DNA of 53,557 bases from the NCBI GenBank assembly GCA_003344405.1, contig NOWV01000171.1, forward strand, positions 1 through 53,557, read 5' to 3'. Below the pieces are notes generated by a model. The model was not told where the DNA came from. It saw only the letters and a list, made by a program, of their open reading frames with translations, and ran no database searches. Numbering within the stretch: the first letter of the stretch is position 1; each line of letters begins with the position of its first letter. Below are positions 379 through 43,628 of this stretch, one piece after another. A program made the translations under genes and the position numbers. This stretch comes from Trichoplax sp. H2. Lineage: Eukaryota.

Positions 379-843
379 AATATGCAGTAAAACATTATGT
401 AGCGTAGAATAGCCGTTCGTGCATAAAATGTAAAATAAATGTGGGTGGTGGCCGATACGTTAATATTTTACACTTTAGAGATGAAAAACCGATTCATTTC
501 AGAGGCATAAGTATAACAAAGACTTTATGTTGCAGTACTATTTGATGCTTTAATTAAATTAAACTAATTGATGAAATCCAAGTAGTTTTAAATCAATTTA
601 TTTACTAGATTAATTCTAACTTAGCAGCAAAGCGTAATTGTTTATTGATTCTGTCCTAAAATTACTATTTTATGCAACTAGTAATATGCTATTATCGTAT
701 TTCAGCTTATATAACTATACAATACCCCAGCTTTGCGATCCGAAAAGATTTGAAACAATTACTAACCAAATATAGACACTAATGATTATTACGGTCAATG
801 ATAGAAATTTTCTAAATTGATGAGATAAATACTAATATTGCAG

Positions 844-1241
844 TCGTTATTTACTTTCTTGACAGCCGTCGATTCTATTCAAAAACTTGCAACTCAAAAT
901 AAAATAAAGTATGGAACTGTTCAAGGAAGCAGCGTTGACAATTTCTTTCACAAAACTGGTCTTAGTCCTTATTATGAAATGGCTCCGTATATGGCCAATG
1001 TTCCCACTACTCAACAAGGCGTCCAAAAGGCTAAAGAAGGCAATTACGCTTTTCTATGGGACGCAGCTTTGTTAAACTATTATAAGAATATACATTGCGA
1101 TGTTATGACCGTTGGTGGTGAATTCCATAAAGATGGCTACGGACTAGGGCTGAGAAAAGGATCACCCTATACGCAAGAGTTTAGCGTAGCTATTTTAAAA
1201 TTAAGGCAAAATGGTTTCATTGAAAATAGAATAAAAAAATG
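844..1241 (+). CDS. Ionotropic glutamate receptor exon: the S2 ligand-binding lobe after M3 (kainate/AMPA-like). The gene is 5'-truncated by the window edge.
   Basis: Translation ...KYGTVQGSSVDNFFHK...EGNYAFLWDAALLNYYKNIHCDVMTVGGEFHKDGYGLGLRKGSPY...AILKLRQNGFIENRIKKW matches the iGluR S2 consensus (YAFLLES...C...GG...GYG...KGS...L.E.G..L..KW). Acceptor ttgcag at 838-843. An in-frame stop lies upstream at 826-828. Donor TG|GTAAGT is phase 2. Confidence 0.8.
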
Positions 1242-1839
1242 GTAAGTCATTTTATCAGCTATTGTAATTCATTCATTGTAAGATCCTTAGACATATATGA
1301 CGGTCTTAAAAATTCTTCAAATCCATTATTATCATACTTTTAAAACTTATAATGCACCGTATTCACGCTATTGATTGATTTAATTAATAAATAAAATCAT
1401 GAAGAGATCTGAAAATCTTAATGAATAGATACCACAGATAACCAAGTTGTCGGAAAAAAATTGGATTTAATATGTAGTATTATGCTATGAAGTAATACGA
1501 GTACGGTACATCACTGCTAATACACATACCCGTAGAAGGAACGCTCCTGATTATTATATGTAAGAGATACAGCAATATAGCCAAATAGCCACACTCTTAT
1601 ACACGTATAATCTGTTGTCCACAAGTTTCAAGCAAAAAGATTTTCCGGATCAGTTCAAAAATAACTGGATATCATTTATTTCTATCCATTTATTAGTTAC
1701 GCGAGTTATAAATATTCGTAAATACTACTGAGTACTAAGGTCATAATAGAATATATCACATAAGTTAGGCAGCGATTTTATATGATTTAATTTTATAAAG
1801 TTATATTAACACATGCAAATTCCATATATTTTCAATCAG

Positions 1840-5128: not shown

Positions 5129-5331
5129 ATGAATATCACATATCGCACCGGTTTTACTCCGACATTCGCTATGATATCTATAATTATGCAAGCTATTCTT
5201 TCCAGCGTTGGCATTCCAGGGAATGCATTAATTTTTATACATATTGCAAAGAAAGGTTCAAGGCGATTACGAATGAAAGATGTCTTGGTTTTGAATTTAG
5301 CAAGTTCTGATTTCCTTTATTGCTTTTTAAG
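5129..5331 (+). CDS. Orphan class A (rhodopsin-like) GPCR, paralog 1, exon 1. Encodes the N-terminus with an NIT glycosylation sequon, TM1 (GIPGNALIF) and TM2 (LVLNLASSDFLY).
   Basis: ATG at 5129. TM1 GN motif and TM2 LNLAxxD motif are present. Donor TTA AG|GTAAGA is phase 2. Confidence 0.85.
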
Positions 5332-7699
5332 GTAAGAGAAATAATAATTAACTTTTGCTTTATGCATCTCTAAAGATTACCCAAAATTTGTTAATTAACC
5401 CTTCTCACTGTTTTATCAAAGTCATATTGATAGTATAACATGTAGTAAATTTATCAACAAAATCCAAGAGAATATCTCTCTCTGTAAATAAATAAAATCA
5501 GTAAAATCATTAATACCTATAAAGATGTCACATAATTTCTACGATACGAAAAACGACTTAAAAGCACCATTTTGCAATAGATTATACAGTCTTATACTCT
5601 GCAAGTTGCTATTACGTTTGCAACCAATTTGGTATAATTCTATGCTAATAAATTCTAAGCTACTTTAAAGTACTGCATAGGTAACACTATGTCACGGTGA
5701 TAACTCACCGTACCAAATTAGTACATGCTTTGCGGCTACAATGATATTGTAAGCCGAGGAGTACGTAACCAGATATAGATTGTAGACGGTACGATTTAAA
5801 TTGTGATGTGTTAAAGGCATTTATATCTATAGTTGGATTAGCAGTATTCTAAGAGGTGTATAAAAGCTTGTAGATAAAATCTATTTAAACGATTGGACAA
5901 ATTAATAAAAGTTAGTTCTTAGTTCCTAAGGTTAGAAGTATAACGTAAATCGAAGGAGTACGAATTATTGCGAGATCGTAGATTCGATCACAACGTTATC
6001 TTGTCACACGGGAGTTTGTGACACACTAAGCCTTTAAAAGCATCATCCGGGCAATATCCTTTCTAAGATCTATTATGGAAACTACATAATTCTATATTAG
6101 TGGGTATGAAGGAGCGATATTAATAAGCGAAAACAATCAAGTTTTAATCGCAGCATTTACAATTTGTCGAAATTGCATGATAGCTCCATTTACAGCCATA
6201 TTTTAAAGGGTTTTTAAAAATATGAGGTTAATCCTTAAACAACAAATTTCTACTGCAACAGTTATATTTATTTAAATATAATTCACGTTGCAATGTCCTT
6301 ACTAGGCTAAAGTCGTGGGAATAAATAATGAGATATTAATACCCCAGGAGATTTTATATCTAGTATTTATTCAGCAATTAACTATTCAACATTTGATATT
6401 GTAACTTTGGAATGTTGATGGTCTATAATAAATAAAGGAAGTTTACCTCTTATACGTGCTAAGGATTAAGTATTATAATTGCCTATAGCTACAAAATTAA
6501 GCTCTGAATATCGTAATTTTCGCGAGTGTATATGCCGGAGCGCCATTAAGTAAATAACTTTTCTGGCTAAACCTCAAGACGTAACTTTCAACTATTTTTG
6601 AATCCACATCTTCAGGTCCACAATTCCAAGTTAAAAATTTTTCATTACAGTCCTAAATTAGTCATACTACCAGGGATAAAGTGTATTTACTTTATGATAA
6701 ATAAATATCGATAAGTACCGTCGTCATTCTAATCTTTAATATCTTAGACTACTTAGTTGGAAATATCATTCTGTTTATTTTGATTTTAAATAACATTATC
6801 TACTTTAAGTTTTCTTCTTAAAAAGCTTAAATATGCCGATAGAGTTTACAACACAAACAAATACAAATATAAAAATATGTTCTAAATAATATTAGAAGAT
6901 ATTTTCGCAAACTTTAAATTTTACTAAGTTATTGTTCACTATTGAATCGTATAAATAGCAAATTAAAGGAAATGTAAAAATAGAGCCTAATCAATAGCAT
7001 AGCTGAAATTATCAGTACAAATGCATTTATTTATTTATAGGACAACAAAGATAGCTCATTTTTGTTACCATAGTAGCATCTATCATAGATTTACACAAAG
7101 TACAATACTTACCGCATATACCCTATATGATCAGCATTCATCATTATGCTGATTTATTTCTTTGCAGAAAATCTTGTTATACCATCTTCATAAAATGGGG
7201 GAATATCTTATACAGTATTTTCAAAATTTATTTTACATCAGATTTTAGCCTATTCCACATGGAAAATTAAGATATCGGTAGATGCCAAACGATCTCTTAT
7301 TCCCTTAACAAATAAATCATTTGCAGACAGGAGTGAAAGGGATTTTTTTATATAAGATTTACTTTTAGATGATACTAGCAGCAAATCGATACTCTAAAGT
7401 AAAAAGCACAGCGTTTGTTCAGTTAAAACAATTATTTCAAAATAATTCTGTTAGATTTAACCTTCATATTTACCATTTTTATGGATACAAAATTGATATT
7501 TGAATCCTGTAATATCAAGTGTTTGATTTCATCATGATTTCCTAAACAAATAATATACACTGCTTTTACTCAACCATTTAGTCATGAATAAAATTCAATT
7601 TTACTAATTTATTAATTTCACTTTTTTCATATACGGAATTTTTGATGCTCTTCCAATTTATGAATCAAGCTGCTGCATATTTATGCCTGATCTTATCAG

Positions 7700-8630
7700 G
7701 ATAACCATTGGTGATATACCGATCTACACCAAAAATTCTTGGAGGTGTCGATTAGGGAAAGCTGCACCATTATATGCTGGAGTCGTCAATATCTATTCAA
7801 TGGCAGCAATAGCAGTAGCGAGATATGTTGTCGTTGTTCAGCCTAAGAAATCATCATGGATTAAAGATAAAAGAAGTTATTTTATAATCACTTTGATCAT
7901 TTGGGTCATACCATTTGTAATAGTATTGCCACCGGTTATTGGGTTTTGGGGTAAATACACCTACTTTCGTGATATTGGTGTATGCTTTTCCATTTATTTT
8001 ATTACCCAAGATTTGAAGTATAAGTCCTATTTCTTCTTCCTTTCCTCTTTTGGTATAATTATACCGACATTAACTATGATAATGTGTTATACCTCGATAT
8101 ATCTTGCCGTTAGAGAAAGTCGAAGACGCTTGGCTAGGCACTCCAACAACAGTTTTAATCAAGTACATCCTGAAGCTGCCAACGAAAATGGAAATTCTTC
8201 GAAAAAATTAAAGCGCCTGCGAAAATGTAAGCATGGGAAAGGATCATCGCAAATGTTACGAACTTCAGTTAGCAATGACAGTTCTAAAAGTAGCGCAGCA
8301 AGTTCATCTCGATCTCCAGAAGTTAGTAAACAAGAATTAAAACTAACAGCAACCTTGGCTCTTATCTTTATATCCTATTTGGTTACCTACATACCATACA
8401 CAATCTCGATGATTATTAATTTTTTCCTATACCAACCTGAAATTATACAATTACAGTTTGGTTTTCTATTCGTCAGCTACACTGGTAACGCTATCAACCC
8501 AATCATCTTTTACAAGCGCGATAAACGATTCAGGCAACTAGTTCTATCATGCCTTGAATTTTTTATACCAAGAAAGCGTCGTCGACATAATACCGTCATA
8601 CATCGATTTATCGTGGAAAGTAATTTCTAA
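7700..8630 (+). CDS. Orphan class A GPCR, paralog 1, exon 2. Encodes TM3 to the C-terminus: TM3 Cys with an ARY triplet at the DRY position, a long Ser/Lys/Arg-rich ICL3, TM7 NPIIFY, and a helix-8-like KRDKRF.
   Basis: Acceptor ctgatcttatcag|G is phase-matched, giving AG+G=Arg. The 310-codon ORF runs to TAA at 8628-8630. Motifs seen: WRCRLGKAAPLYAGVVNIYSMAAIAVARY and GNAINPIIFYKRDKRF. Confidence 0.85.
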
Positions 8631-11600
8631 ATTTCGCAAATGCAGATAATATTGATCGATCATCATACCTGTTGAATTTTACCATATTTCTATTATGGTG
8701 GCTAAATCCTATAAGAAATGAACAACTACCTGCATACTTCCTTAAGGAATAAAATATACCCTAATTACATTGTAAACATATCTAAGGATAGCGGAACGAG
8801 CAAATGTGTATTAAAACCGCGAAAAGATCGAGAATAGAAACAAGATATCATCAATAACATATTAAATTTAAAATTACCAATAATTCTTTATCATTATTGA
8901 ATTTTAAAGGCAGAATATAAATATATTATAGCCTTTGAAGCCAAATTAAAGGTTTTTTAAATAATTACGAAAGTATTCCAATAGTACTGTATATAATAAG
9001 TTATGTACTTAAACACTTATTTTACAAGTCTTTCAGTAATTTGATATTAGAAAGCTAATGAAATTTGAGTGTAATTATATTAATATATGCCTCTAAAGTG
9101 ATGCTTCTTCGTGGAAGTAATTGTGCTTATTCTATATTTTAGCCGTGTTGGGTACCACACCATGAGGTGATTTTTCTTTGCCATATCTGGCATTATAAGT
9201 AATTTAGAAATTTTTTAAAATATCCTAGCATCCATTTATCCTTTAACACGCGATCGAACTCTCTTAAAATTTAAGCAGTTACGTAAATATTGAATAAATT
9301 TCCTACTAGATTATGATAATTAATAAAATTAATCTAAAAGAAGCACTGCATGATAATTACCGTAAGTTAACATGACATTTTTAATGTACGAAAAAATACC
9401 GTTATTACTACTGAAATTATTGCTTTGCTCTATCGTTGGTCACTAGTTTAAATAAGTAATACCTGAATGATCAGAGATACATATATAAGGTTCCCGTTGG
9501 CATTTAATTTTATTTTTTTCTTACAGTGCTAGTATTATGTATGAAGATATTGGTTCTTGGCTATCTAACCTACCTTCGTATTTTAAAATTGTTAGAACTG
9601 TACATACCTGTGGTATTGCTTGTTTCGATTTTTTCGTTGCAAGGCAATAAAAATATTATCTATTGAGTCTGATATTTGATTTCCTAAGTTGAAATGTTAA
9701 ATCCTTGCTAGAAATACTAGCAATACCATCATAATTTGATGCATAAATATTTGTAACATACATACTAGTAGCCTTAGAAATTCTCTAATTATGCTATTGC
9801 CTTTGTAATAAGTTTGACAAGAGGCCAATAATTATAGATTTTTACAACGTGCTCATTTACACACACTTTTTACGATCAAAATTTTGATACGTGTATTCTA
9901 TAGCATGATTGCAATCATTAAAATTAACTGAGCGATGCAAAAAACATAAAGATGACAAGTGCTCCATCAACTTATCTATCTAGACGTAAAGATACTTATA
10001 AGCATCTTATAATCACCTAAAAATTTCGGATATTTCACCAAAATCGCAAAATTATCATTTGCTGATATGCGTATAAATGTCGAAAAATATTTTTTCTTTG
10101 CAACTCTTTCCACTCGCTAAACTATTTTTTGTTCATTTACGAAGCTGATTATCCCTTTAAATATTTAAATGGGTGTCTTCTAATAATAATATAGCATAAC
10201 TTATTATCACCAGTTATAGCAGCATCTATCTCTTCCAAGAAACACCTATACACTGTAGCACTCGATTCAATATCACACAGTCGTTCAAAGTTTAACTAAT
10301 TGCTTACCAAATAAGTGAAATCATATCTGCTATACATAATTCAAGTTTGACAATGTAATTCAGTAATTACTTCCAAGCTATGCACTTACACGTAAATATG
10401 TAAGTATCAAGTAAACCTTTTTATCTTTTACCAGTGTTCGAGACTGATTGCAAAATTATTAACAATAGAGCAAGCATATCTATAAGTATGTTTATTAAAG
10501 TGTATGATAAGTTTCTTATTCGCTAAATTTGATAGTAAATATGACATGAAATTGCACAGTTACATCCGAGGAGTAGATCTACTTCATCTAGAAACGTAAA
10601 TAATTTAATTTCAAGGCTATAAACGGTTGTCTATAAAGTAACGATTTAATATAATTTAATAAATCATAATCGATCAATGAATCATATCGTTCTTCTATAA
10701 CTTTGCGAGCATCATAACTTATAATATTGTCTCATATTGTTATCAATAGCATTAAATGAATTTTTATATCAACTGTTGAATAATAAAGGTTTAAGCTATT
10801 AATTATTAATGAAGGCTAAGACGATGGAATATACACTATTGTATCGATTTTATCAAAAAAATTTTCCTTTGGAATCCAATTTATTTTATATTCGCAATAT
10901 ACTTAAAATCATAGTAAAGTATCAGCAAAGCTCCGCATGCTTACCAAATAAGATAGTGGTCTATCATTGCGGGAAAACGATAAGAAAACCTACTAATCAT
11001 CAAATCTACTTATATTTCGATGCGATTACCTTACGATGCCAAATTCATAAGAGTATACACGATAATAAGAATTTAAATACATTTCTTAAAAGTATCATAT
11101 AGTCAGTATCTATATGACTTTGATAGAAAAATGTTAGCATACAAAGAAACTAAATCTGGATTTTTAATTTAGCCAAGATGCTGTAAATTGTCAACGATAT
11201 TTCCAGATATCGAAAGCATTCGTAACTCGCTAAATTAATCACTTCAAATTTACAAATCACTTTTTACTCATTTTCATATATATCGTATTAAGATTTCCAG
11301 CGGTAACTTACTCGAGATAAAACTACCGTAAATTATTTATTTGCCCAAAGGTTTTTAAATTTAAGATGTTGAAAAATCTAAATGTAGCAAAGTTAAATCT
11401 ATCTCTTTGTGCATTGTTACTACTACAATATCTTCTCAAACTCTTCTAGTTTTCGCATAAAATTAATAATTTTATTGCAACTTGGAAATGACTTTTTTAA
11501 TATCTTGCAGAGTATTAATAGATGATGTCATATATTAGGAATGCTTTAATATATTTAAAGTAAATCATCTTAGTGACCTTCAGTTACATTACAAAGATGA

Positions 11601-13453
11601 TTAGCATAACTTATAGATACACTTTACTTCCATTTAGCCATGCGAGTATTATCAGTCTATAACGGAACGCTATAGAATTATGATAGTTTAAATAGCTCAA
11701 ATTTTCAAACGTGAAAATTAGCCGATCATCTCCACTACCAATTTTGAATAATTCATTTAAATAAATAAATAAATTACTAAAATATACATTATAATGGGTC
11801 TGTGTAGTCTATATCAAGAGAAATAATTATAGTTGAATCTAAACTACACGAGTCTTGTATAAATAGTTTAAAAATCAATCAAGATATCTTAAGATGACTA
11901 ATCAATTTGCCCCAATTTCTGAGGCATCTTTGTAATAAGATTAAAAAATAAACTGATGACCTTAATACCAATATTTGTAGCCATTATGCAAATGGATAGC
12001 CAATATTATGAAGTAACAACATCTTGTCTATTTAACTTGCCGACTATATGAACTAATTCCTTGTGCGTTAGCCATGGCTTAATTGTAATATAATGCAAGC
12101 TTACTTTTACTCAAACTTGCAAGATTAATATTTACTGGACAAAATGTATTGCCTTGATTTGATCGACAAAAGTTCAATTAAGAATGAGACAGCGCGCAGG
12201 AAGAGTCTGTGATTAATTCAGTACTCTGCCAAAATATGCTTATTGCTAGCTTAACTTGATAGATATAAGCTCCATTTTACTAATGAGATCACCTTTATTC
12301 TGATGAGCATTCAAACTATATCTTTAAATTGATGGACAGAAGATATATTTAAGGATCAGAATATCATTATTGTTTATATATTAATTATCATTAGCTCTAC
12401 AAATTGATGATTTATATTACGTTGTTGATTGAGAGAATATGGCCAACAACAAATAGATGAATTTATCAGATATTAGATTGCTTTTTTCTATTCACGATAA
12501 TTCTCTTTGATCATTGCCTACTTTGTATACAACATTGAACTTACTGAATCGTGCATGCTAACGTTTGCTTCTAGGACTTAATCTGAATAAATCAATATTG
12601 ATTCGATCCTCATTAACATAATTAGCGCTTCTATCATAATTAAATTCTCTGTAGTTTTTATCGTTAGAACATCACTGATACAATGTAAAGTATACTGATT
12701 CCTTGTCTATGTACATGGAACCAATTCAAGTTAAGGCTTGATCTACTTTTTACTGTATTATGAACTTTTTGCTAGTGCTCTAGCTTTCAATCAATTACGC
12801 TGAATTCATTTAAAAGAGAGATTTCCTATTTCTCGCTAGAAACTAGGATTAGATAATGATTTAGCACCTACAAGCAATGTGGAGAAATATTTTAGAGGAT
12901 AATATGATGATCATGAAAAAGATTTTAAATCGTTTTATAATTAATATTGACATTAGGCTTAGTTTCTTTCATGTTACATCAAAAAGGTTACCGCTCGATT
13001 GAAAACTTATAAAGCGGCCGCAACGACAATTTTTATTAATTTTAACATATTTTGCTGGACTGTGAAAGAATTCAAAGAAGGCGCATTTTACATTAAAAAA
13101 TAGAACCTTTTTGGATAATGAACTTTCATTTCACTTGAAATATCCTAGCAGTGTTCCAATTCCATTTCAACGCATTCGATGTTCAATTAGTATTATAGCT
13201 ATTGAAAACCATACGCTGATTCATCCAATCTTTACCTGCAAAGAAACGCCAATAATTGATTTTAATTTATTTTTTGTCATTTCAAGAATTATACGTGCAT
13301 ACTCGTATAGCTATTCTTATAGCTTTGCAATAGTCTTTAAGTTAGTCCATAAAATCGCAGAGCTTTTAGAAATTTACATAACTTATTAACTACGCCCATG
13401 CTTTGGATATCCTCAGTCTTAAGTCAGATAAGTACTAAAAAATTTCATCGAAA

Positions 13454-13680
13454 ATGGATACTTCTTCTATCAATTTCACTACTGCCAACCAATCACAGCC
13501 TATTCTCACTCAAAAATTTACCTTAATAGTGATGGTACTACAAAGTTTTTTGGCTGTTATCGGCATTCCAACTAATATTACAGTCAGCGTCTATCTAATT
13601 TGGCAATGGAATAAAATCAAGCTAAACGATGCACTGATCCTAAATCTAGCACTAGCCGATGGATTATATTGCATACTGAG
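13454..13680 (+). CDS. Orphan class A GPCR, paralog 2, exon 1. Encodes the N-terminus with NFT and NQS sequons, TM1 and TM2 (LILNLALADGLY).
   Basis: ATG at 13454. Donor CTG AG|GTAAGA is phase 2, the same intron position as paralogs 1 and 3. Confidence 0.85.
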
Positions 13681-14811
13681 GTAAGAATTATTTTTCATGT
13701 AATAAGACGGAAAATATTTTCTACTAATTCCCTTTCCATCTCTATTTATCACACTTGTCTAAGTAATAAAAAACTAGAAATCTTCCACTAATTCACTTTT
13801 CATTTCACCTTTATCATATCCCCCCCCTAATTAAGACAAACATTAGTCCATATAAGTTACTTATAATTAATGAGAGCTTCATTGCTTTGAAGATATTCTA
13901 TTGCTATAGAAGTGAATAAACTTAATCTACAGTTTTTCTTTGCTAGTAAATTATTGATTAATTCGTTCCGCTTGCACACCGCATGCACTCAAATAGACAA
14001 AGATAATTTAATGTTATCTTAATACAAAATATACGAAGTATATACCATACAGTACAGCTGTGATATATACCAATCACGAGATTCCAAATTTTAGAAAAAT
14101 AAGGCTTTATTGAATCTTACACAGAGATTAACTACACACAGCTCTACTCTAGCCGGATACTACTTCTAAAGACTTCCAGAATGAACTAACAGAATAATCT
14201 AAAGTTGCATGCTTTTATACTTTCCGTAGCATTCGCAGCTGCAATCCGCAAGGCAACCTTTTACCTTATTTTACACATAGCTAAATTATTCTTAGTAAGA
14301 CTATTCTACTGCGGACCATCATTAATCCAATATGGATACCACTACAGTACTTACGCAGACATTATTCACACCAGCCAAAGTACAATGAATTAATCATATC
14401 CTAATATATGATTTACAGTTCTATTTTTACCTATAGCCTTATTAGTAACTCAATACCTTACTGTATATAGTCATCTGTACTCTTGCATAGAGTCTATACT
14501 ACTACAGTCTATAGTTATAGCTACCAAATATCTCTTAGGATAAATATCTACCGTACATTATACTAAACATGGCTAATAGTCTACAATCACAATACTAGTT
14601 ACATTACAACAGCGCTTGATGCAAATGGGCAATTTTTATCGTTGCACTTACATGTATCCCTCTGAAAAGATACTCTCTAAATTAATTTAAGAATTCTTTA
14701 AACCTTTTATAAGTATATGATAGCAGTTCTCAATATCATGTAAATGTAAATACCTTGTTCTAGTATTTAAATGTTTTAATTTTGGCGCAAATTTTATAAC
14801 TTCATTTATAG

Positions 14812-15700
14812 TTATTTTCTCTTCTTCCCAAATTTAATGAAAATCTATAATGGTCAAATACCCATTTACGATTCAAATACGCTTCTTTGTCGACTTAATA
14901 TGGCAATACCTCTCTATTTCTTTATCAGTAACATTAACAGTATAACATTGATGGCAATTATTCGTTATCTGGTTATTGTAAGACCAAGAAAATTAATGTG
15001 GCTGAAAAAGAAAAGATGGGTCTCTAGTCTTTACGTCCTAAATTGGTGTATACCTCTCATATTTACCTTGCTTCCTTTATTTGGCTATTGGAGTAAATAT
15101 TCTTACTTCTCCACATCTGGCCTTTGTGTTATCATATATAGATTAGACCAAAATAGTAGCAATCAGAGCTACTTTATTTGCTTCCTATTGTGTGTATTAA
15201 TATTACCTATCTTGATAGTTACATTCTGCTATTATAAAATTTATTACACTGTTAAAGCGAGTAAGAAAAAGCTTAGTTGTCATGCAAGTATTGGTAAAGA
15301 TTTGGCTTCGTCGTATTCATCCTTTGCATGGTCTTCCTCGCATAGTCTACAAAGTGTTGCAAATAAATGGAGTAAACGACGAGAGTTAGCATTCACTCAA
15401 ACTTTGTTGATTATCTTTATCGCATTCCAATTATCTTTTCTGCCTTTTACGGTATTATTCTTGTTAACTTACTTACATTCACTAACATTACTTATCCAGT
15501 TTCTTGTTGGTTTCTTCTTACTAAGTTCTGTCGGTAGCGCTATTAATCCAATAATCTATCTCGTACGTAGCAAAAAATTCAATCAAACATCGCCTACTTT
15601 AAAACGAAATATATGTTATTCTGTTAAAGCTGTTCCGATCCTTATTGCCTCTTCTAACTCTCTTTATAATACTGCTAAAGGAAATAAGCTCCATGCATAA
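14812..15700 (+). CDS. Orphan class A GPCR, paralog 2, exon 2 (TM3 to the C-terminus: CRLNMAIPLYF...IRY...NPIIYLVRSKKF).
   Basis: Only one phase-compatible acceptor exists downstream of the in-frame stop at 14777-14779: cttcatttatag|T at 14809-10. It adds about 10 aa to ECL1 relative to the paralogs. ORF runs to 15700. The stop and everything from TM3 on are secure; the acceptor is less so. Confidence 0.7.
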
Positions 15701-18700
15701 TGATTTCATGAATGAACAAAGAAATCTTCGAACCTGTAATTATAATACCAGCATTACTTATTTTTCATAATGTATCGTGATAGCATTTCAAATTGTACAA
15801 TTTTCTCTATATTAATGGAGACATTTATAGAATTAATTTCGATTCTTAACCATTTTTAGCAAATTTAATGGAAATATTAAAATATCCTAATATAGGTTGG
15901 TTATGCATGTAAAAATTTTAGGCCTTTGGAAACAAATGCATTAACGTTGATATAATTTACATTATCACGATATGCTCGATTTTTATAAATTTCATTCAGG
16001 AAATTATTCAACCATATTGCAGTATGGTTATTCCTTGATATGTGTTGTGCTTATATTCTGTTATCACAAATAAGTACCAAATAAATAATGTTCAAGAATT
16101 TTCGAATGAACTTGTATTGATATCTTGCATCGCGGCAGAAGTATCGATATTCCTTTTTGTGGTATAACTAATAGTTCATGGATGATGATTCAATTTCGAA
16201 AGCATGATTTAACTTCGGTATAGGATTATTTATAGATGATTACTAATTAATAGGCAACGACAAAGACGATAACTCTAAAATTAATAAATTCAGTAATAAT
16301 ATGCTGAAGTTTGCAATTTGCAGTTTTAATAGCAGACTCTATCATCCTTGGAGTAAGTTTTACTACACTGTTAAGCTGCTTAGTAAAACTTTTTTTGTAC
16401 ATTACAGTTTTCTTATACACCTTTATTCGCGTTGAAGTAATTAATAATTAGTTAAGTATTATAAACCTATTGCGAATGTTGTGTTAGAAAAGCAATATAT
16501 GGAAAGCATTTGATAGCTTTTAACGTTAAAATCAAATCAAAAATTAAATAAAACAGTCATACTCGATTTATCAGCGTCCATTTTGGTATATAGATATGTT
16601 ACGGTCAATATTCATTATTAGAAATATGTAATTAATTAATAACGGAATAATTACTTTCTGCTTGATTATAAATAAGTACAACTATCAGGATATGAGTAAG
16701 TACTGGTAAACAACTTGAGATTCTATAATCTATTTTGGGATAAACTGACTCAAAAATGATGTGATAGCACTTTAATTTCTTGTCAAGTTTTACTATATTA
16801 CGCAGCTCTTTTACCAAGGGCTGTCATGGACTATCTATATCTATAACTTATCTCAATTTCTTATCAATTTACTGTTTTATAGACTCATGGACTCCGATTT
16901 ATTTAGTGTTACTAGATTATTTACCCTTTGATTATTAATCGCATAGTACTATACTACGTTTGTACTATTAGCTGACCTAGTCCACTCTATTAATAATTCA
17001 TAAATCTAATAAAGCCACCTAGCAAAGGTCTTCAAATTTTCGCATTGGTATTGTTAATATCTCCCACATTTAAATACTTGTACAATCTTACCATCTAACA
17101 TACAAACTCAATCCATTGCAATACAAAAATACGCTATTCTAAGAAGATGTCTCTAAATATTGTTACTTATCTAACTAGCACGTTATCACCATATTATTTC
17201 TATATTCTTTTATTTTATTTTATTATATCAAATTAAATTGAAGAGAATAAACTAAACATTAAATTGATATTATAGGATTTACAACAGTTGTATTACGTTT
17301 TTGAACTTATAGTTGAAAGTTAGACGTTACATATTTTGTATTGCTATGTATTAATTATGTGCACAACGCTTTCTCCAGTATTTTTCATCTCCATAATTTA
17401 ATTATTAGAAAGAGCTCATAAAATGCATGTTCATCACGCTTCTTATAATTATGAATCTTGTATTGCTACAAAATAAGTTTAGTTTGTATTTATAGATAAT
17501 TTGTCACAAGCACTCATTAAATTATTTTGTCTGAAACCAACACAACAACTTCACACTACAGTTTATCCACTGTTGTCAGCAAATTAATAAGGCATTTTAC
17601 TTGAAAACTTAAGTTATCTTCTAGTACTATGAATCTCTTGATAGATTAAGAGTTATTCGCCAAATTAGACTTTCTTATTGACTTGATTAGCTTAAAAAAT
17701 TCGTATATTTTAAGAAATGGTATTTAAAGCAGATTAACAATAATTACATCAATAAATGTACAGAAGTATATTCGAAATTAGCACAGCAGCAATTACACAA
17801 TATAATAGTCCTAAACTTGGATAAGATATTTAGAAGAATGAAAAGGATAATGTAAAGAGTACCTAAAGCGTTGCTTAATTTGTTTTAAGACGAAAAGAAA
17901 ATTAGTTTACATATTCTTCTTATGGACTATTCAAAGGATTCTATATTAAAAGCAGATACCAAGAAGTGTATTTAATTATCAAGATTAAGTGATAACACAG
18001 CCAGGCTAAATTATGTGCCGTACGTATACTCAGGCTTTAAAAATTACTAGATTTGATATCTCTTCAAGGAAGTTGATGAATTGGCTACTTAATTATTAAT
18101 ATTGGTTCAGAGAACCTATCACACAGGACTATCAATAGTATCAAGATAAAGAGATTGATTTTAGTTTTCAAATAAATTAAAAGCAATTAATTATTCTTAT
18201 TGTACTAAATTATTATCTACAAAGTATAAGATATTTTCAATAACATCGTGTATTCGAAAGATATTGTACTTTAAATTAAGTAACCTAAGTTGATTAAATA
18301 TACAGCAGATAGATATACCGTAGTTATGTACCGAGGTGATTTCCTTCTAGAAGAAAAGTTAATATAAATTGAGCTAATTGTCTGTAACAAATTAATTTAG
18401 AATTTTAGTACTAGATCAATTAAACTTGATTTATAATTCACAAGGTGCAGTCAAAAATAATCAGGTATATATCCTTTAAATATATATAATTTAACTAGAA
18501 TGTAAGTTTTGAACTATTCTTTTCCGTCAATAATATCCTTTCATAACTCTAATGCAAGTAGACTGTGAATAAGAAAGGTATAGATTAGTAGAAACAAGGT
18601 TATGGAGACTGATGTATTTGAATTGAAATAATTATTTTAGTCAACAAAAATAATTTAGCAATTATTATCTCAAGTTAGTTCTACAATGATTATCTAAATT

Positions 18701-20286
18701 GAAGAATATTAAAAAAATTTGAATTACGTGATTCAGGGAGATAAAAGTTATAGATTATCTTTTAATGTTAATTGTATCGAATATTTTCACCTTATTAAAG
18801 AATATTCATGATTACTTCTAAAAAGATAATACAATGATCACATTTTATAATAACTAAAGTAGCAACTATTCTGCTTAGCTATTCCTTGCAATTTACCTAA
18901 TCGATGCCAAGATTTATAATCCTATTCTATTAGACAATTAAGTTTGGAAGTTAATCAGTGATTATTTTATTTATAATTAATCTAGCACGTTTCTTTAAAC
19001 TGTCGATTAATAAGGAACGTATTCAATCTATTATATATACAATGACAATATATAACTTACGATACAGATATCTTCCATTGACTAAAGGTTAGAATTTTTT
19101 TCTTTTGGGAAAGATTTCCGTAAACAAATTTTTCTATGAAGTTATGCTACTAATTTAAATGATTCACGATTATTAAATATTGGTAATAGACAACGATCAG
19201 CAGTAAGAAATTAACAAAATAATGGAGATTATTTTATATTTTCTTATAACAACTAGGGTTGCATATCGTGTCTTTCTTAGAAGACTGAGAAGAGTGTTAT
19301 ATAAAATCGTGATATAATTTCCTCCACTTTACCTCAATTGTTGTTAATCAATCGCTAGTTTTATTTATTAATCTTAAGACTCAGCAAATTGTGTATAGCT
19401 GATTTCTTAATAAACAAGAGAATGTTTGACACAAAGCTGCCATTGAAATTGTATGAGTATAACATTCATAAGAGCCTTCTGTTTTTTAATTTAGACATTA
19501 TAAAATAGTAGAAAAATTAAATAATTTATCATAACTTTACCATAAGTCCTATATCAAGATCGTAAATATAGATATATAAATGTACTACACATAGACATAT
19601 ATGTATACAGTCGATATAGTGCAATATGGTATAATTCATTATAGGGGAAGATGTATTATATAAGCTTCATCAATATCGATTAATGAGCTACATATTAAAA
19701 TAAGTTCTTTGTGTAGTGAACACAACCTCAAAATGATCACAGACTAAAGTTACTATTTTAGTGTAGTAATGGGAAATAAAATTTAACTATTTTACAAATA
19801 ATATCACAAGTTCCAGGATGAACTATTAGGAAAGGCGGTGATCATTTGATCTTTGTTATACTGGATAACTGTAACTTCAATATGCTTCTACTGATATACA
19901 ATGACAGATTGCCATTTATTTTCAACTTTAAATGAGTTTAAGAACAGCAATTACGGTAACCACCAAGATCATTCATTAGATGAAAAAAGAGGATAGTATT
20001 CCCCGCTTTCATATTAGCTTGCAAATATTATTCACACTAATCATAATGATACGCTACACACTTACATATACATATTATTGTTTTCGTATTTAACTTTTAT
20101 TATCCATTATAGCGCCATTTTCTACCTAGACAATCAGTAATCTACTACAAAGAATTAGCTCTCCTATAGCTACAAATTGTTAGTTATACACCATTGCGAT
20201 TGAGTGTCACGGTACGAACTACCGTGAAGAAATAGCTATCTAAATTTGGTGAATATAATATAGTGATAATATATTACATCTAGATC

Positions 20287-20635
20287 CTTACAATAGGAAT
20301 TACTCTAATTATAAATGTGTTGCAGTAAATTTAATGATGTGCTGTAATGTGCACTGAAATGATTCTGTGAATGGACATATTGTAGTCCGACTGTGAAAAA
20401 CTAGTTAGTAGATGTTCTCACCTGAGTATTTTTATGAGATGACTTGTGAATGTTAGCTGCTGTAGAAGGGTATATAAGCCCGCCAGATAGTTGAATAAAG
20501 CAGTTCTCAATAGTCTAGTTTAGTTTAACGTAGAATCAAAGGCGTCTAAATTGTTGTGAGTAGGGATACTGAATCCCGGAGAGTAATTTAGAGATTTATT
20601 TCACGTTATCCTTTTCACGAAGCTGGTTTGTGACA
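20287..20635 (+). repeat. Interspersed repeat, copy 2 (about 349 bp), in the intergenic DNA between GPCR paralogs 2 and 3.
   Basis: Same family as 30..378, same orientation, same TATA-like and AATAAA-like motifs. Confidence 0.85.
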
Positions 20636-22627
20636 TTGAGATATTAGAATGTCGCACATAGCTACGTCTACATACAGTAACATATATACATATGCTAAAG
20701 TACGGAGAATTGTAAAAGTGAACCAAGCCAGGCTTTAATATTATCGTAATAATACATAATACCCTCAAATATGATTAATTACCGATGCCACTCATATATT
20801 TTTCTCTTATGAGATCATTAATTAAATATCTTTATGCAGGTTTAGTTCGGTACTATGGCTTGCCTATGCTATAGCTAACGATTACAAGTATGTAATTATT
20901 CCTTAGATTGATTATATTCACATCTCGTCATTTATGATGCATGCGTCGTTATCCGTTTCTACGTCAAATTTAATAATTTATCGATATAAGTTGCCTAGCA
21001 TACATAGTTAACCGAATGTGGTATCATGCAGTTGAGTTGTGTGTCGTAGTTATATAGGCTGATGATCATATATACTCAATTAAGACTTAATGTAATAAAT
21101 AATCCATTGAAATTAGGCGTACTAGAATAGTTAATATTCATCTTATAGTCTTAAATTTTTACTAATAAGGACTATTACAAAGTAATTTGTGTGTTGAGAA
21201 TATAAATTGGTAGTGGCGTAGCTAGGTGTAACCAACGCCAACTTATACATGTTTACCTACAAAGGATTGTTGAATTGCAGTGATCCTAGACTACCTATTC
21301 GTGCACCTATATCTATACGAATATATATGCATGAGTGTATATATCTCCTACTTAATTTAATCTTATCATCCTTACCTAAATATTGATCATGGCCTATATG
21401 CAAATTATAATCTATATAAATCGTTCTATTTGTCATAATAATAATAGCATTAAAGCATTGAACAGCACGAAGACTAGCGTTTCGTGGTTACAATCTTCCC
21501 GTGCCATTATATAACTTAGCTGTTTAATCATTGATATACAATAATCTTCTAGGCTAATAAACATCGAAGATTACTTTTATGCTATAATAATTACCAATAA
21601 ACAATAGAAGGAAATGGAGCTACGGCTTTAAAAATAGCTTATCAATAGGACGGACTAAGATAGATAATTGATATTGTATTGAAGTAACTATTAAGAATAA
21701 AATCTTCATCATGGATTCTATCTTATTTTAAGTTGACGTTTATTGTGGACTAAGATAGCATGATTTCTATTGTAATTGTTCATTTATAGTGAACTCATCC
21801 ATCTTTACCGATTATTCTATTTTTTATCTAATGTTGCCGGGAGCGATAGTAACAATCTTATTATCAACACGATGTATGTTGAATATTTGATTAATGACCT
21901 ACATTGTATGCCAGGTTCAAGTTGACTTCAAGATGTTAAAAATAAAAATATTATTAATCTTGATTATGGAGTATCCACATACGGTATACTAATTGGTGTT
22001 GGCATAAAAAGTGGTAGCGTCCGAAATGAATATTAATATCAGGTGTGAAAGATGAATGGTTCAATGTATGATCACTTTTATGCCAATTACTATGAGTGAC
22101 TAAGCAGTAATTTGAAGATATTAAATTGTAATAAATAAGACAACAGAAGTAATCAGATGGAATATATTCATATGCTTTACTTTAGCAAATGAGGGGTGGC
22201 AATTAAATCAAGGCTATTGTTTCCTTAGACAATTAACCGTCAAGATAATATATAAACACTCGGTTATAATCACGATTTGTTATCATTATCGTTACCCCTT
22301 GATGATGGACAGGCAATCTTTGCCCGTGGTGAGACAGCGATGGTTTTATTTGACTACCGTAAGGTAATGAAAAAAGCGATAAAGGCAATTGCAATATAAT
22401 TTGATTTTCCATCACTGGTAACTATCCTTCCAAAGATTATAAAGTCGTTAGGCGTTGATTTAATCCCCTTTCAAAACTTTAATTACGGAAAACAGAGAGA
22501 AAAAAGTTGGATATTTCTTTACTAGCAGTACCATTGATTATATTTTTCTTAATCCCTTGATAAAAGCGATTCAGTATCAACAAACTAATTAAGCATTTTA
22601 TACAAGTCGGAACAAACAGCCATCATC

Positions 22628-22842
22628 ATGAACGAGACTACCAATGGTAGTTACTTTATTCTGAATGTGAATCGAGATTTTGCTGTCGTATCTATGGTCT
22701 TCCAAACCTTTTTCTTGGTAGTTGGTGTACCAGCAAATGCTTTAGTTTGCTTTTTTACATTTCGCAAAAAAAAGGATATTAAACTAAGTAACATTATTAT
22801 ATCGATGCTAGCAATATCAGATGGTCTCTACACTATTGTCAG
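22628..22842 (+). CDS. Orphan class A GPCR, paralog 3, exon 1. Encodes the N-terminus with NET and NGS sequons, TM1 (GVPANALV) and TM2 (MLAISDGLY).
   Basis: ATG at 22628. Donor GTC AG|GTAAAT is phase 2. Confidence 0.85.
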
Positions 22843-23229
22843 GTAAATAATTAAATTTTTTTATTACTTCAAAGCCGATATTTATATATTTTTTTATAGA
22901 AGTTGTAGAGTCAATTTTTGGAGAGAGATGAAGTTTTATAGTATCGGTCAATTTTAATGATCGGTAATGAGTAACTGGATCTAGACTGGTTTATATTAAA
23001 ATACATTATTTCGCATCTACTAGTAGAAATTTAATAGGACTCACATCTATTATTTTACGAAATCATTACAATTTGATTATCTATTCACTAATGTTTACGT
23101 ATATCTATTTTTCTTTCCTGTATGATGGTTCGATCGATAATTTTTTTCAATTCGATGGTCTACTTCTTTGGTTATACCGGTTATTATATCTGGGGACAGT
23201 TATATCGTTTTCTTTCCTGCTATGTATAG

Positions 23230-24106
23230 AGCTTCTATCGGTCGAACTCCTGTTTATCCCACATCGACAATTAGTTGTCGAATCGAAGTTGGGTTACCTC
23301 TATATTTTGGAATAGTCAATATCTATTGCATGACTGTATTAGCGGTGACAAGATACATCGCTATAGTTACGCCGCAGCGTATGATTACTGTGAGGAGGCG
23401 ACACGGAATCTTGATTATATCACTTTTAACTTGGACTTTACCATTGATTTTTACTCTACCACAAATATTTGGTTATTGGGGTGGTTTTAGTTATACTAAT
23501 GGTCTTGGTATATGCCTCGGCGTTTATCATTATAGCCAAGGATTCTTAACTGGTTCTTACTATATATGCTTAATTTTGTTTGTAGTTCAATTTCCGACTT
23601 TAATTATCGGTTGGTGCTATCATCAAATTTACCTTGAAGTGAAAAGAAGCCGTTTGCGTATTAGCCAATTCCGTTCTAGTACCGAACATGATGATCCATC
23701 CGCTTCTAGCCACTCACGAGGAACTAAGCGAAATATAACTATCTCTGGCAATCAAGGAAATCGTTCTAGTAGAAGGCGGGAACCCGAAAATCGAAAAGCC
23801 GAAATTGCTATCGCTAAAACTTTAGTAATTATTTTTGTTACATTTCAAATTTCATTCATGCCCTATAGTGTAGTATCTTTCTATAATTTCATCAGTCATA
23901 CTTCTTACACAGTCTTACTTCAACTTGGCTTACTGTTTGTGACTTACATTGGTAATGTAGCCAATCCCTACATATTTTTATTTCGTAGTGATAAGTTTCA
24001 AAAATTCTGCAACTGGCGTTTAATGAAATGTTGTCAAAAGGGAAGATTTAACACTAAAGTTAGGCCAGTACGTTTACCTGATACTGAGCTTTCATCACCT
24101 TCATAA
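23230..24106 (+). CDS. Orphan class A GPCR, paralog 3, exon 2 (TM3 to the C-terminus: SCRIEVGLPLYFGIVNIYCMTVLAVTRY ... GNVANPYIFLFRSDKF).
   Basis: Acceptor ttctttcctgctatgtatag|A is phase-matched, giving AG+A=Arg. ORF runs to the stop at 24104-24106. Confidence 0.85.
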
Positions 24107-31273: not shown

Positions 31274-31302
31274 TAAGGTATCTTGAAGTATCAGTACAGT
31301 CT

Positions 31303-31462
31303 TTAAATCCATATATCCGACGTACAATCTCCGCCTGGATATCGAACCTCATGAGCTAGCGCAGGACCATCTGGCTCTTTACCAAAATCCACACAAAGGT
31401 TCGAAAGTGTTAATCCACCTTTTTCAGTATTAACGTCGATTTGTAGCAAAACCGATCCAGTT
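31303..31462 (-). CDS. SELENBP1: SBP terminal exon 11 ([53 protein letters not shown]).
   Basis: Acceptor ttttctag. Matches the human C-terminus ...[29 protein letters not shown]. Summed CDS is 1419 nt, 472 aa, identical in length to human SELENBP1. All exon phases are consistent. Confidence 0.9.
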
Positions 31463-31633
31463 CTAGAAAATGAGGTTATAGAAAATTTAAGATTGTACAT
31501 ATTCTAATATGATTTAATGGATACGCTACATTAGTATCTAGCTATAAACTTATGAAATAACACTATTGTGTCGGATAACACGAGTAGATTTGTGACCTTC
31601 ACAAAGGGGAATATTTCGGTACTTAGTACATAC

Positions 31634-31845
31634 TTTAATAAATTTGGATAAAACTGTTTATCCCAAGGACTAAATAGTGATGTGGTAACGAACAGACGTT
31701 TGCCATCTAAACTTAGTTGTAACATTTGAGGGGCTCCATCAATGTTTCGGTTATTAAGGATAAGTGGATCAGGTTGTTCTTCAAGCTCGGAGTCTTGGAT
31801 TACCTTGACCGGCCCTGTCTTTACAATACTTCCACCAAGGAAGAT
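31634..31845 (-). CDS. SELENBP1: SBP exon 10 ([70 protein letters not shown]).
   Basis: Acceptor tcttaaag. Matches human [69 protein letters not shown]. Donor AA|GTATGT is phase 2. Confidence 0.9.
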
Positions 31846-32308
31846 CTTTAAGATAGTAAAATGAAAAAATTAGTTTCAAATTTATAAAAGAGAAGCTAGC
31901 ACAAGTTAGATGAAACATGAAGTTATACGAGCGCATTTCGTCATCTTTGTTTTACTAAAAGTAAATGGTTTTGCTGTGATTCGAATAACTTGGGTAAAAG
32001 TATTAAATATAATGGATCACGTTATTGCTAGAGCTGGTGTATACTATACCAGCATTTTATATTCTGCCTTCGCTATCTTCGAAGATATTTATTTTTATGC
32101 TGTATACTAATCTAATAATGCTAGTATTTAAAAAGAATTTGAGATTAAATCTAATTTATTTGTCACTGCCTTTCACGAAGACATATAGTTACTTCGTTTA
32201 GTGGTATTGAACTGCGTTTTGCGCTAAACGATCAACTAAAAACTGGCATTATATACGAATTATGTCATACGAGTACGTGTATATGTGTTGGTAATCGTCC
32301 TATCATAC

Positions 32309-32430
32309 CTGTCCGACGAGTCTTGGGTTAGCCCTATCAGTTATGTCGTACTGTCTTATATCACCATGTAACCAGTTCGAAAAATACAAATATCGATCGT
32401 CCAAAGACAGAATAATATCGGTTATAAGAC
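32309..32430 (-). CDS. SELENBP1: SBP exon 9 ([40 protein letters not shown]).
   Basis: Acceptor atattag. Matches human [40 protein letters not shown]. Donor CAG|GTATGA. Confidence 0.9.
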
Positions 32431-32507
32431 CTAATATGATTTTATAGGATAAGATTCAAATTTTAAGAATAAAGTAATTATCAAATAGTGATAGCGTAAC
32501 ATCGTAC

Positions 32508-32586
32508 CTGGCATTTCGGGTAGGACCCATCCTTCTACTTTTTTTGGAGGTACCTGAATTGCTTTATGAGCGGCCCAATCTCCTTT
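32508..32586 (-). CDS. SELENBP1: SBP exon 8 ([27 protein letters not shown]).
   Basis: Acceptor ctatag. Matches human [27 protein letters not shown]. Donor G|GTACGA is phase 1. Confidence 0.88.
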
Positions 32587-32677
32587 CTATAGATTTACAT
32601 TTTATAGTAATTGTTTAAATTTTCAAAACGAAGTTTGGAGCAGAAACAAATATTAAATACATGACCTAGAAGTTTAC

Positions 32678-32859
32678 CTCCGTTTTATAAAATCTAAATA
32701 TAGCGCTACTCAGAGCACATCCCACGTATCCTTGAGTTTCATTGGGATCATGTAAGAAACGAATTTCTAGTGGTGTTATTCCTTCGTTCCCAAGGCGGAT
32801 TACCTGCTGTAGGGTATGATCTTCCCAATTGTAAACGTTGAGACTGCTACCATATTTAC
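32678..32859 (-). CDS. SELENBP1: SBP exon 7 ([60 protein letters not shown]).
   Basis: Acceptor tttttaag. Matches human [59 protein letters not shown]. Donor GAG|GTAAAC. Confidence 0.9.
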
Positions 32860-33037
32860 CTTAAAAATAATTATTCAGTTTTCATATCACTAGTGTATCT
32901 GATGTAATAATTAATATTTAATATACAGTGATAGAACTCTTATAGAATGCCGGAATACATTCATCAGTAGCCTACAAATGGCTAATTATTTGTGGTTATT
33001 ATATATTTTATGAGTTGAATTTTCAACACTAGCTTAC

Positions 33038-33220
33038 CATTCTGTACATCTTCCATGCTAAATCCAGCACTTAGTGCATTTGGTTCTCCCCATTCAGTGC
33101 TTATCATGACGTTATGGCGAGGTTGATACCAATAATCATATCCAAATTCGGCATTATTGCCTTCCTTTTCCCAATTGCCTGTAACCTCAAATGTCTTGCC
33201 ATTTATGAGTACAAATCCGC
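33038..33220 (-). CDS. SELENBP1: SBP exon 6 ([61 protein letters not shown]).
   Basis: Acceptor ctgagcacag. Matches human GFVLLDGETFEVKGTWE...[36 protein letters not shown]. Donor G|GTAAGC is phase 1. Confidence 0.9.
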
Positions 33221-33319
33221 CTGTGCTCAGTAAAGGATAACTAGTATTAAGATAAGTATCATGGTATAAACATGAACGTGACAATATAGGGTTAAAATCG
33301 ATAATAAATAACTATTCAC

Positions 33320-33440
33320 CCTTTTTTTCCCCATTTGAGTCTCCTAAACAGCTAATCATTATATTTCCATCGGCTAGGCAATGGCTGGTATGAGGAAAGC
33401 TTAGATCAGTCTTTGAGGAAATTTCTTCCGGCTCAACCAC
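33320..33440 (-). CDS. SELENBP1: SBP exon 5 (VVEPEEISSKTDLSFPHTSHCLADGNIMISCLGDSNGEKKG).
   Basis: Acceptor ttttactag. Matches human [42 protein letters not shown]. Donor G|GTGAAT is phase 1. Confidence 0.88.
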
Positions 33441-33621
33441 CTAGTAAAACAATAGCAAATGCATAATTACTTTATTGTTTTATCTACCTACGCCAATAAA
33501 TCAAATTATGCAGTAGTTGTTCAATACTATATATTAATGTAAGTATAAGAAAGCAATACGTGAGTGAATAGACCGATTCCAACTGTATTTTAATAAAGCG
33601 AATTAATTAAATAATATTTAC

Positions 33622-33736
33622 TTTGAAGATTCTTGGAGCTTTAGGGTCTGTTTTAACATCAATAACATATACTCTACTGGATTTCAGACTGGGTAATATC
33701 AGTTTATTACGTTCTTTAGTCGAATCTCCAAAGCAG
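33622..33736 (-). CDS. SELENBP1: SBP exon 4 ([38 protein letters not shown]).
   Basis: Acceptor cattatatag. Matches human [38 protein letters not shown]. Donor AAA|GTAAAT. Confidence 0.88.
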
Positions 33737-43560: not shown

Positions 43561-43628
43561 AGGGTAGAATTCATTAAATTGGAAAAAATTATTCCTCCTT
43601 GTCATCTTCCTGTGCACATTGGTTGCCA

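Follow-up and report, generated by a model that had tools for sequence, protein, structure and literature searches.

Three receptor genes in a Trichoplax contig

The stretch of Trichoplax sp. H2 DNA analyzed here (contig NOWV01000171.1 of assembly GCA_003344405.1, positions 1 to 53,557, 53,557 nucleotides (nt) in all; hereafter, the window) contains a tandem array of three two-exon genes for class A G protein-coupled receptors (GPCRs), all on the plus strand, which are denoted G1, G2 and G3 in the order of their positions. These are very probably three independent, functional class A GPCR genes that belong to a small subfamily, one that appears to be largely confined to placozoans. An initial annotation, made from the nucleotide sequence, had placed three plus-strand GPCR genes here and had ascribed to them one common two-exon structure, N-terminal N-glycosylation sequons and low mutual identity; the open reading frames (ORFs), the reading of the sequence and the Pfam 7tm_1 matches bear out the genes and their architecture at a level well above chance, N-x-S/T sequons are present in all three proteins, and the pairwise identity among these proteins is 30-35%.

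The first exon of G1 (5129..5331, +), whose ORF begins with the first ATG that follows a stop codon, encodes an N-I-T sequon, transmembrane helix (TM) 1, intracellular loop (ICL) 1 and the start of TM2, through D2.50 to ...LYCFL, and ends with the AG of a split serine codon, followed by the donor GTAAGA; in a tblastn search, this exon is paralogous to the first exons of G2 and G3. The phase 2, GT...AG intron of G1 (5332..7669, +) is 2338 nt long, with no ORF of at least 60 amino acids in the ORF listing, and exon 2 (7670..8630, +) encodes S-CCIFMPDL (the remainder of TM2), extracellular loop (ECL) 1, TM3-TM7, helix 8 and the C-terminal tail up to the stop codon, for a protein of 387 amino acids. 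The 371-amino acid protein of G2 is encoded by exon 1 (13454..13680, +), with the sequons N-F-T and N-Q-S, TM1, the LNLALAD motif of TM2 and the donor AG/GTAAGA (here and below, the slash marks the exon border), and by exon 2 (14812..15700, +), with S-YFLFFPNL, TM3-TM7 including IRY and NPIIY, and the stop, the two being separated by a phase 2 intron of 1131 nt (13681..14811, +). In G3, exon 1 (22628..22842, +) contains N-E-T and N-G-S sequons, TM1, SMLAISD of TM2 and the donor AG/GTAAAT, the phase 2 intron is only 357 nt long (22843..23199, +), and exon 2 (23200..24106, +) encodes S-YIVFFPAM and TM3-TM7 with TRY and NPYIF, up to the stop of a 373-amino acid protein. The intergenic gaps are 4.8 kb (G1-G2) and 6.9 kb (G2-G3), and a tblastn search of the whole window returns just the six exons of these genes, with no further copies.

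A shared intron inside TM2

The donors (AG/GTAAG in G1 and G2, AG/GTAAA in G3) are all in phase 2 and interrupt the identical aligned codon. The initial annotation was right about the phase and the shared codon for all three donors, but it placed the intron just after TM2, whereas the intron is located inside this helix, some seven residues past D2.50, where it interrupts a serine codon of the AGY type. It also misplaced the acceptors of G1 and G3, with the resulting junctions LYCFL/R and LYTIV/R, by 10 codons downstream. The acceptor common to every family member is 30 nt upstream of that choice in G1 (7670, not 7700) and likewise in G3, where exon 2 starts at 23200, not 23230; the JGI/RefSeq model of G3 also uses the downstream acceptor, ending the intron 30 nt later.

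The upstream AG always restores the AGY serine codon, which is followed by a conserved peptide, in G1-G3, in two paralogues and in two orthologues. The junctions read ...LYCFL/S-CCIFMPDL in G1, ...LYCIL/S-YFLFFPNL in G2 and ...LYTIV/S-YIVFFPAM in G3; the paralogues TRIADDRAFT_60377 and TRIADDRAFT_59294 have, as annotated, S-YCFIFPDM and S-ATGVLRV, and the orthologues of G3 and G2 from a divergent relative have S-YIFFFPSM and S-SALFFPNL, respectively. Within the 30-nt stretch, four of the seven codons that differ between G3 and its orthologue are changed synonymously, as expected for coding sequence. In G2 and TRIADDRAFT_60377, a downstream AG that is in frame seems to be missing from the equivalent place. 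Furthermore, the segment falls within the TM2 helix (residues 53-84) of the AlphaFold2 model of G3, and without it TM2 would end six residues past D2.50. The phase 2 intron in TM2 is an ancient trait of the subfamily as a whole, given that the distant paralogue TRIADDRAFT_59294 has it as well.

Class A receptor features

The search against Pfam 7tm_1 (PF00001; model length 260, gathering cut-off 30.5 bits), which had been suggested together with the initial annotation, gives a significant full-length match for each of the three proteins: E-values of 3.4e-33 (115.7 bits) for G1, 1e-30 (107.5 bits) for G2 and 1.6e-34 (120.0 bits) for G3, with model positions 1/2-260 of 260 covered. The AlphaFold2 model of G3 contains helices at residues 3-45, 53-84, 96-128, 139-161, 187-234, 266-304 and 306-334, plus helix 8 at 336-352, a hairpin in ECL2 and disorder over residues 230-270; for G1 and G2, the seven TM helices are predicted from the alignment. 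A Foldseek search with the G3 model returns class A receptors only, the mu-opioid receptor and SSTR1 at the top. Together, the model and the Foldseek search confirm the generic class A fold but nothing more specific.

All three proteins have N1.50, D2.50, the cysteine pair of C3.25 and ECL2, R3.50-Y3.51, W4.50, P5.50, Y5.58, E6.30, P6.50 and NP7.50. The canonical D/E3.49 and W6.48, which are common yet not obligatory class A features, are both missing: position 3.49 is A in G1, I in G2 and T in G3, and position 6.48 is Y, F and F, respectively. The alignment thus contains the ARY/IRY/TRY triplets at the DRY site that the initial annotation had reported, and agrees with it also on the TM7 motif NP(I/Y)I(F/Y) (NPIIF in G1, NPIIY in G2, NPYIF in G3, with F at 7.53 in G1 and G3) and on the absence of the opsin lysine from TM7, position 7.43 being Y in G1, S in G2 and Y in G3, whereas opsin matches in the same alignment show K. 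Other motifs had to be amended: LNLAxxD is found in TM2 of G1 and G2, but G3 has SMLAISD; W6.48 is indeed missing from TM6, but the motif in place of CWxP is [FY]xxx[FY]xP[FY] rather than FxxxFxPY; and ICL3, described as very long and rich in Ser, Lys and Arg, is rich in S/T and K/R but only moderately long, with 81 (G1), 50 (G2) and 60 (G3) residues in the span from Y5.58 to E6.30.

Given the lack of K7.43, G1-G3 are not opsins in the strict sense, and given the lack of D3.32, they are not classical amine receptors either. Position 3.32 is Pro in G1-G3 and in TRIADDRAFT_60377, and is invariant in the family alignment. Across eight family members that are otherwise 32-47% identical, the invariant residues include the G protein-coupling microswitches R3.50, Y5.58, E273 (6.30) and NP7.50, as well as P293 (6.50), and, facing the pocket, P3.32-L-Y3.34, the W, Y, G and C of ECL2, Q185 and S191-Y192 at the top of TM5.

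Independence, constraint and age

Orthologues of G2 and G3 were found in Logan contigs from another, divergent sample. Both are intact and consist of two exons with the same intron; the G2 orthologue encodes 371 amino acids (74% identity, dN/dS 0.096) and the G3 orthologue 375 amino acids (72% identity, dN/dS 0.101; Nei-Gojobori estimates). The dN/dS values of about 0.1 imply strong purifying selection on G2 and G3, and the existence of these orthologues together with saturated dS (about 1.8-2.0 for both pairs) indicates that the duplication preceded the split from the divergent lineage. Accordingly, the cluster is old, not the product of a recent duplication, as the initial annotation had proposed. 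Its further description as a lineage-specific expansion holds insofar as the paralogues are old and diverged, but the expansion extends beyond this array: neither G1 nor G2 is as close to G3 as is TRIADDRAFT_60377 (47% identity), a dispersed paralogue from a different scaffold.

It is highly improbable that any of the three units is a pseudogene, or that all three make up one long gene as its exons. What could suggest such a decay is the absence of G1 and G2 from the protein matches in T. adhaerens H1, where G2 is not called at its locus, their truncation in the H2 annotation, and the failure to detect an orthologue of G1. All three genes, nevertheless, have uninterrupted ORFs, canonical GT-AG splice sites and every key class A residue, G1 included, and G2 and G3 evolve under the constraint described above. 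The single-gene version, which the initial annotation itself had named as the case that would overturn it, is at odds with the structure of the units, each of which begins at its own ATG, the first to follow an upstream stop, spans a complete 7TM core and ends at its own stop.

Public gene models and names

Positions 12630-34108 of the window are 98.8% identical to T. adhaerens H1 DS985241.1:8786802-8808280. The public models of the three receptors are incomplete in different ways. G3 corresponds to TRIADDRAFT_52295 (XP_002108133.1), with 97.05% identity to the H1 protein and 97.32% to the H2 protein RDD38566.1; the public H1 and H2 models are 363 amino acids long and lack 10 residues of TM2, and the difference from XP_002108133.1 consists of this 10-residue gap and a single residue, an N for D in exon 1. 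For G1, the H2 annotation includes only an exon 2 model of 315 amino acids, named 'moody', to which the exon 2 ORF is 100% identical, and for G2, only a fragment of 266 amino acids (RDD38565.1, 'Melanopsin-B'), 100% identical within exon 2; without exon 1, both models are devoid of TM1-TM2. The H1 orthologue of G2 (DS985241.1; 825-3068 of the compared stretch) is intact and 99.7% identical to G2 at the protein level in exon 2, but was not called in the 2008 annotation. The protein search gave no H1 match for G1, the compared H1 locus beginning only at window position 12630, and an exact look-up of the H2 exon 2 protein of G1 led to no contig.

The automatic names given in H2 to members of this one subfamily are 'moody', 'Melanopsin-B', 'Somatostatin receptor type 4', 'Rhodopsin, GQ-coupled', 'GPR45' and 'Melatonin receptor type 1C'. 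These names are best-hit artefacts and are mutually inconsistent. In a full-text literature search, TRIADDRAFT_52295 was mentioned in no paper. The corrected full-length models of the three receptors are the main practical gain of this analysis, given that cloning for de-orphanization needs the right ORFs.

Placement of the subfamily within class A

In a neighbor-joining (NJ) tree of 129 sequences and 269 columns, G1-G3 group with Trichoplax paralogues and two unlabelled representatives, apart from the moody, opsin, melatonin-clade and amine groups. The pairing of G3 with TRIADDRAFT_60377 has 93% bootstrap support, or 71% once the H2 'GPR45' paralogue joins, and an exclusive clade of G1, G2 and G3 has 0%.

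A profile built from eight family members and searched against 1.84 billion representatives produced 22 matches below 1e-30. After the query sequences themselves, the Trichoplax paralogues rank first (142-227 bits; auto-named 'GPR45', 'moody', 'Rhodopsin GQ-coupled' and 'Melatonin receptor 1C'), followed, at 115-131 bits, by bilaterian receptors, namely, Ptychodera 'alpha-1B-like', Acanthaster 'alpha-2C-like', Plakobranchus 'moody', Branchiostoma 'GPR84-like' and Drosophila and Anopheles 'moody'. Among the 132 top matches treated as non-placozoan, a part of which were checked by name and which may include a few placozoan sequences, position 3.49 is N in 80, D in 20 and E in 5, position 6.48 is Y or F in 45, the combination of N3.49 with Y/F6.48 occurs in 32, position 6.30 is E or D in 102, and 12 are opsins with K7.43. 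The ECL2 motif GxWGx[FY]x[FY]...C is common to G1-G3 and the top matches. The leading matches among solved structures are a mixture within 65-89 bits (SSTR2, SSTR4, squid and bovine rhodopsin, M3, CCK-A, 5-HT and opioid receptors), of which SSTR2 is the best, at 89 bits.

In profile-profile comparison with hhalign, the scores of which serve for ranking only, the family is most similar to the far placozoan paralogues (305), followed by GPR84-like receptors (283, with only TM1-5 aligned), moody (277), opsins (275), a group with NRY and W6.48 (239), the Trichoplax melatonin clade (234), the placopsin 171/172 group (223), the Tadh173/amine group (206) and, with the lowest score of all groups, SSTR (153). 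Taken together, these comparisons place the family in the opsin/melatonin/moody neighborhood of class A and suggest that its nearest relatives outside are likely to be the NRY-type receptors (moody/GPR84-like) and opsins, rather than SSTRs, classical amine receptors, placopsins or the Trichoplax monoamine receptors, and that the subfamily is probably placozoan-specific. The initial statement that the three receptors match no obvious amine or peptide signature can thus be made more precise, with the affinity narrowed to NRY-type receptors (80 of the 132 matches) and opsins (12 of the 132).

Possible mechanism and ligand

A diffusible ligand would bind in a TM pocket, lined by P3.32-L-Y3.34, the ECL2 hairpin, the aromatic residues at 6.48/6.51 and Y7.43; binding would break the R3.50-E6.30 lock, and the release of the lock would activate a heterotrimeric G protein; the Ser/Thr/Lys/Arg-rich ICL3 and the C-terminal tail would offer phosphorylation targets for regulation by kinases and arrestin. 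The conservation of the pocket suggests that the paralogues recognize chemically related ligands. A small hydrophobic or aromatic non-peptide ligand appears slightly favored over a short peptide, the two being close to even with a small remainder for anything else, because the nearest relatives are either orphan receptors or have ligands that are small and lipophilic or aromatic.

A broader proposal is that the entire subfamily (G1-G3, TRIADDRAFT_60377, TRIADDRAFT_59294 and the H2 paralogues), recognizable by its TM2 intron and its invariant P3.32-L-Y pocket, is the placozoan counterpart of moody/Tre1/GPR84-like receptors, or else a sister to the opsin lineage, with all members sensing one class of small ligands. 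This proposal is rather unlikely to be correct; if it is, de-orphanization of the subfamily would provide the first handle on the ligands of moody-type receptors or on a pre-opsin receptor state.

Several observations weigh against the interpretation of G1-G3 as independent functional receptors of a placozoan subfamily, or soften parts of it. Neither of the protein searches found an orthologue of G1 with more than 36% identity, and the dN/dS estimates cover G2 and G3 only. The clade of the whole family has just 39-49% NJ bootstrap support. The hhalign comparison groups were drawn from the family's own best matches, which biases their scores upward. The AlphaFold2 model of G3 is only moderate (predicted local distance difference test score, pLDDT, 63.6), the splice junctions are predicted from homology and conservation, and the preference for one ligand class is something that we infer from the relatives. 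Replacement of D3.49 may raise basal activity, and the loss of D3.49 together with W6.48 could mean altered, possibly constitutive, signaling instead of classical gating by an agonist. The same potential effect of D3.49 replacement is raised in a 2025 preprint on Trichoplax receptors (10.1101/2025.04.18.649542).

Genomic surroundings

The window is AT-rich, with a G+C content of 26-40%; the G+C fraction rises up to 0.40 at 42001-44000, compared with 0.26-0.35 elsewhere. Before the start of the GPCR array, the ORF at 838-1245 (+) encodes the S2 lobe of the ligand-binding domain of an ionotropic glutamate receptor, with GluK4 and GluD2 as the best PDB matches (E 1e-21) and no Pfam match at E<=0.01; it is probably one exon of such a receptor gene. 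Downstream, at about 31300-35450 (-), there is a gene for the 56-kDa selenium-binding protein (SBP56; Pfam E 5e-24 and 9e-19); it has exons at 32982-33284 and 35149-35448, among others, and is annotated at the matching place in T. adhaerens H1. Two further exons, at 46796-47149 and 48197-48664 (+), are those of an ADAM10-like metalloprotease: one encodes Reprolysin_2 with HELGHNFGA, and the other encodes the ADAM10 cysteine-rich domain and, after it, a TM segment. Two copies of a dispersed repeat, each about 350 bp long and sharing 88% identity, occur at 30-378 and at about 20285-20638, between G2 and G3; the repeat is seen as the second blastn match of the H1 stretch, at 7656-8009. No tRNA genes and no Rfam matches at the gathering threshold were found in the whole window.

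Comparison with known class A receptors

The moody, Tre1 and amphioxus GPR84-like receptors are the highest-scoring named matches of the family outside Placozoa (115-131 bits, along with alpha-adrenergic-like receptors with NRY), and the conclusion that G1-G3 are placozoan co-orthologues of this bilaterian lineage, which would act as Gi/o-coupled controllers of epithelial junctions or cell polarity, is possible although unlikely. The likeness extends to the lack of Asp3.49, Y/F6.48, E6.30, Y7.43, the ECL2 motif, the long ICL3, the short N-terminus and the NPIIY-type TM7, the last shared with Tre1, which combines NRY and NPIIY motifs (PMC5584160); N3.49 prevails among the top matches, often with Y/F6.48, the H2 annotation calls G1 'moody', and a BLAST-based survey reported moody homologues in Placozoa (PMC8540695). 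However, it is A, I or T that occupies position 3.49 in G1-G3, not the N of moody and Tre1, a residue that melatonin receptors also carry (10.1101/2025.04.18.649542), and the invariant P-L-Y at 3.32-3.34 sets the Trichoplax family apart from moody and Tre1. In the NJ tree, the moody clade is separate from the G1-G3 family, if with weak support, and in hhalign the opsins score as high as moody (275 vs 277). The intron was considered as a shared character and rejected: in amphioxus 'GPR84-like' (Branchiostoma floridae CM022886.1, 3001-5613 of the stretch compared), the only relative checked, a single phase 2 intron splits the Arg codon of NRY and is not located in TM2. The equally high score of opsins would fit an alternative origin, in which G1-G3 are 'placopsin'-like: chemosensory receptors that descend from the opsin lineage or are sister to it, and that lost the retinal lysine or never had it. 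The best matches with solved structures include rhodopsins (squid 3e-23, bovine 5e-15), the named non-placozoan proteins that match G2 best in the word index are Opsin-5-like, opsins with K7.43 are represented among the top matches (12 of the 132), two of the H2 names are 'Melanopsin-B' and 'Rhodopsin, GQ-coupled', and opsins have in common with the family E6.30, a hairpin in ECL2 and a TM4 that ends in 'P..G.W'. Still, such an origin is improbable: 7.43 is Y/S/Y and the DRY site is [AIT]RY in G1-G3, and the published placopsins (XP_002113363 and XP_002112437/8; Feuda et al. 2012), which like G1-G3 are without the retinal lysine, are other genes that have themselves been reinterpreted as monoamine-type receptors (10.1101/2025.04.18.649542). 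The identity of G1-G3 with these placopsins was rejected, G3 being XP_002108133.1 and Tadh171, Tadh172 and Tadh173 scoring 90, 48 and 45 bits with the family profile and falling into separate NJ clades.

A monoamine-type function raises a separate question, considering that 5 of 56 Trichoplax receptors have been de-orphanized for tryptamine, tyramine or phenethylamine (10.1101/2025.04.18.649542). The melatonin-related receptors Tadh153/165/168/170 come from the same organism, belong to class A and have a similar length and architecture; they also lack D3.49 (FRY/IRY/CRY), and an alignment of the de-orphanized melatonin-clade sequences shows that D3.32 is missing there as well, so that its absence from G1-G3 does not exclude small aromatic amine ligands. 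An extended-family paralogue is, moreover, named 'Melatonin receptor type 1C' in H2. Nonetheless, there is little to recommend G1-G3 as trace-amine or monoamine receptors of this kind, inasmuch as Tadh153/165/168/170 score only 46-72 bits with the family profile and form a separate NJ clade. In the supplements of the preprint, where the list of the 56 tested receptors is complete and an absence from the trees is not absolute, neither the motifs nor the accessions of G1-G3 and TRIADDRAFT_60377 were found; the absence from the list places G1-G3, and the subfamily with them, outside the set covered by the monoamine screen. An assignment to peptide receptors of the somatostatin/opioid/galanin type is similarly doubtful, even though G3 is auto-named 'Somatostatin receptor type 4' in H2, SSTR4 and SSTR2 are the best single-sequence and profile matches among solved structures, the top Foldseek matches point the same way, an ECL2 beta-hairpin is predicted, and many small peptides have been reported in placozoan signaling (PMC10580291). 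Although somatostatin and opioid receptors match best among PDB sequences and in Foldseek, the identity to them does not go beyond about 20-25%; in hhalign, the SSTR group scores 153 compared with 275-283 for moody, GPR84-like receptors and opsins, and SSTR2 reaches 89 bits where NRY receptors reach 115-131 bits. The set of solved structures is biased, and the SSTR/opioid match reflects PDB sampling, not orthology. The invariant E6.30, the 'P..G.W' end of TM4 and the long ICL3 of the family are features of the alpha-group of class A rather than of the gamma-group.

For Trichoplax sp. H2, 923 GPCRs have been reported, largely in placozoan-specific expansions (Najle et al., PMC10580291), so that a tandem trio of orphan receptors is unremarkable in this organism. 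As placozoan-specific class A expansions have already been described (PMC10580291), the general picture of GPCR biology is unchanged: G1-G3 are an ordinary case of such an expansion, to which they add new, poorly annotated members.

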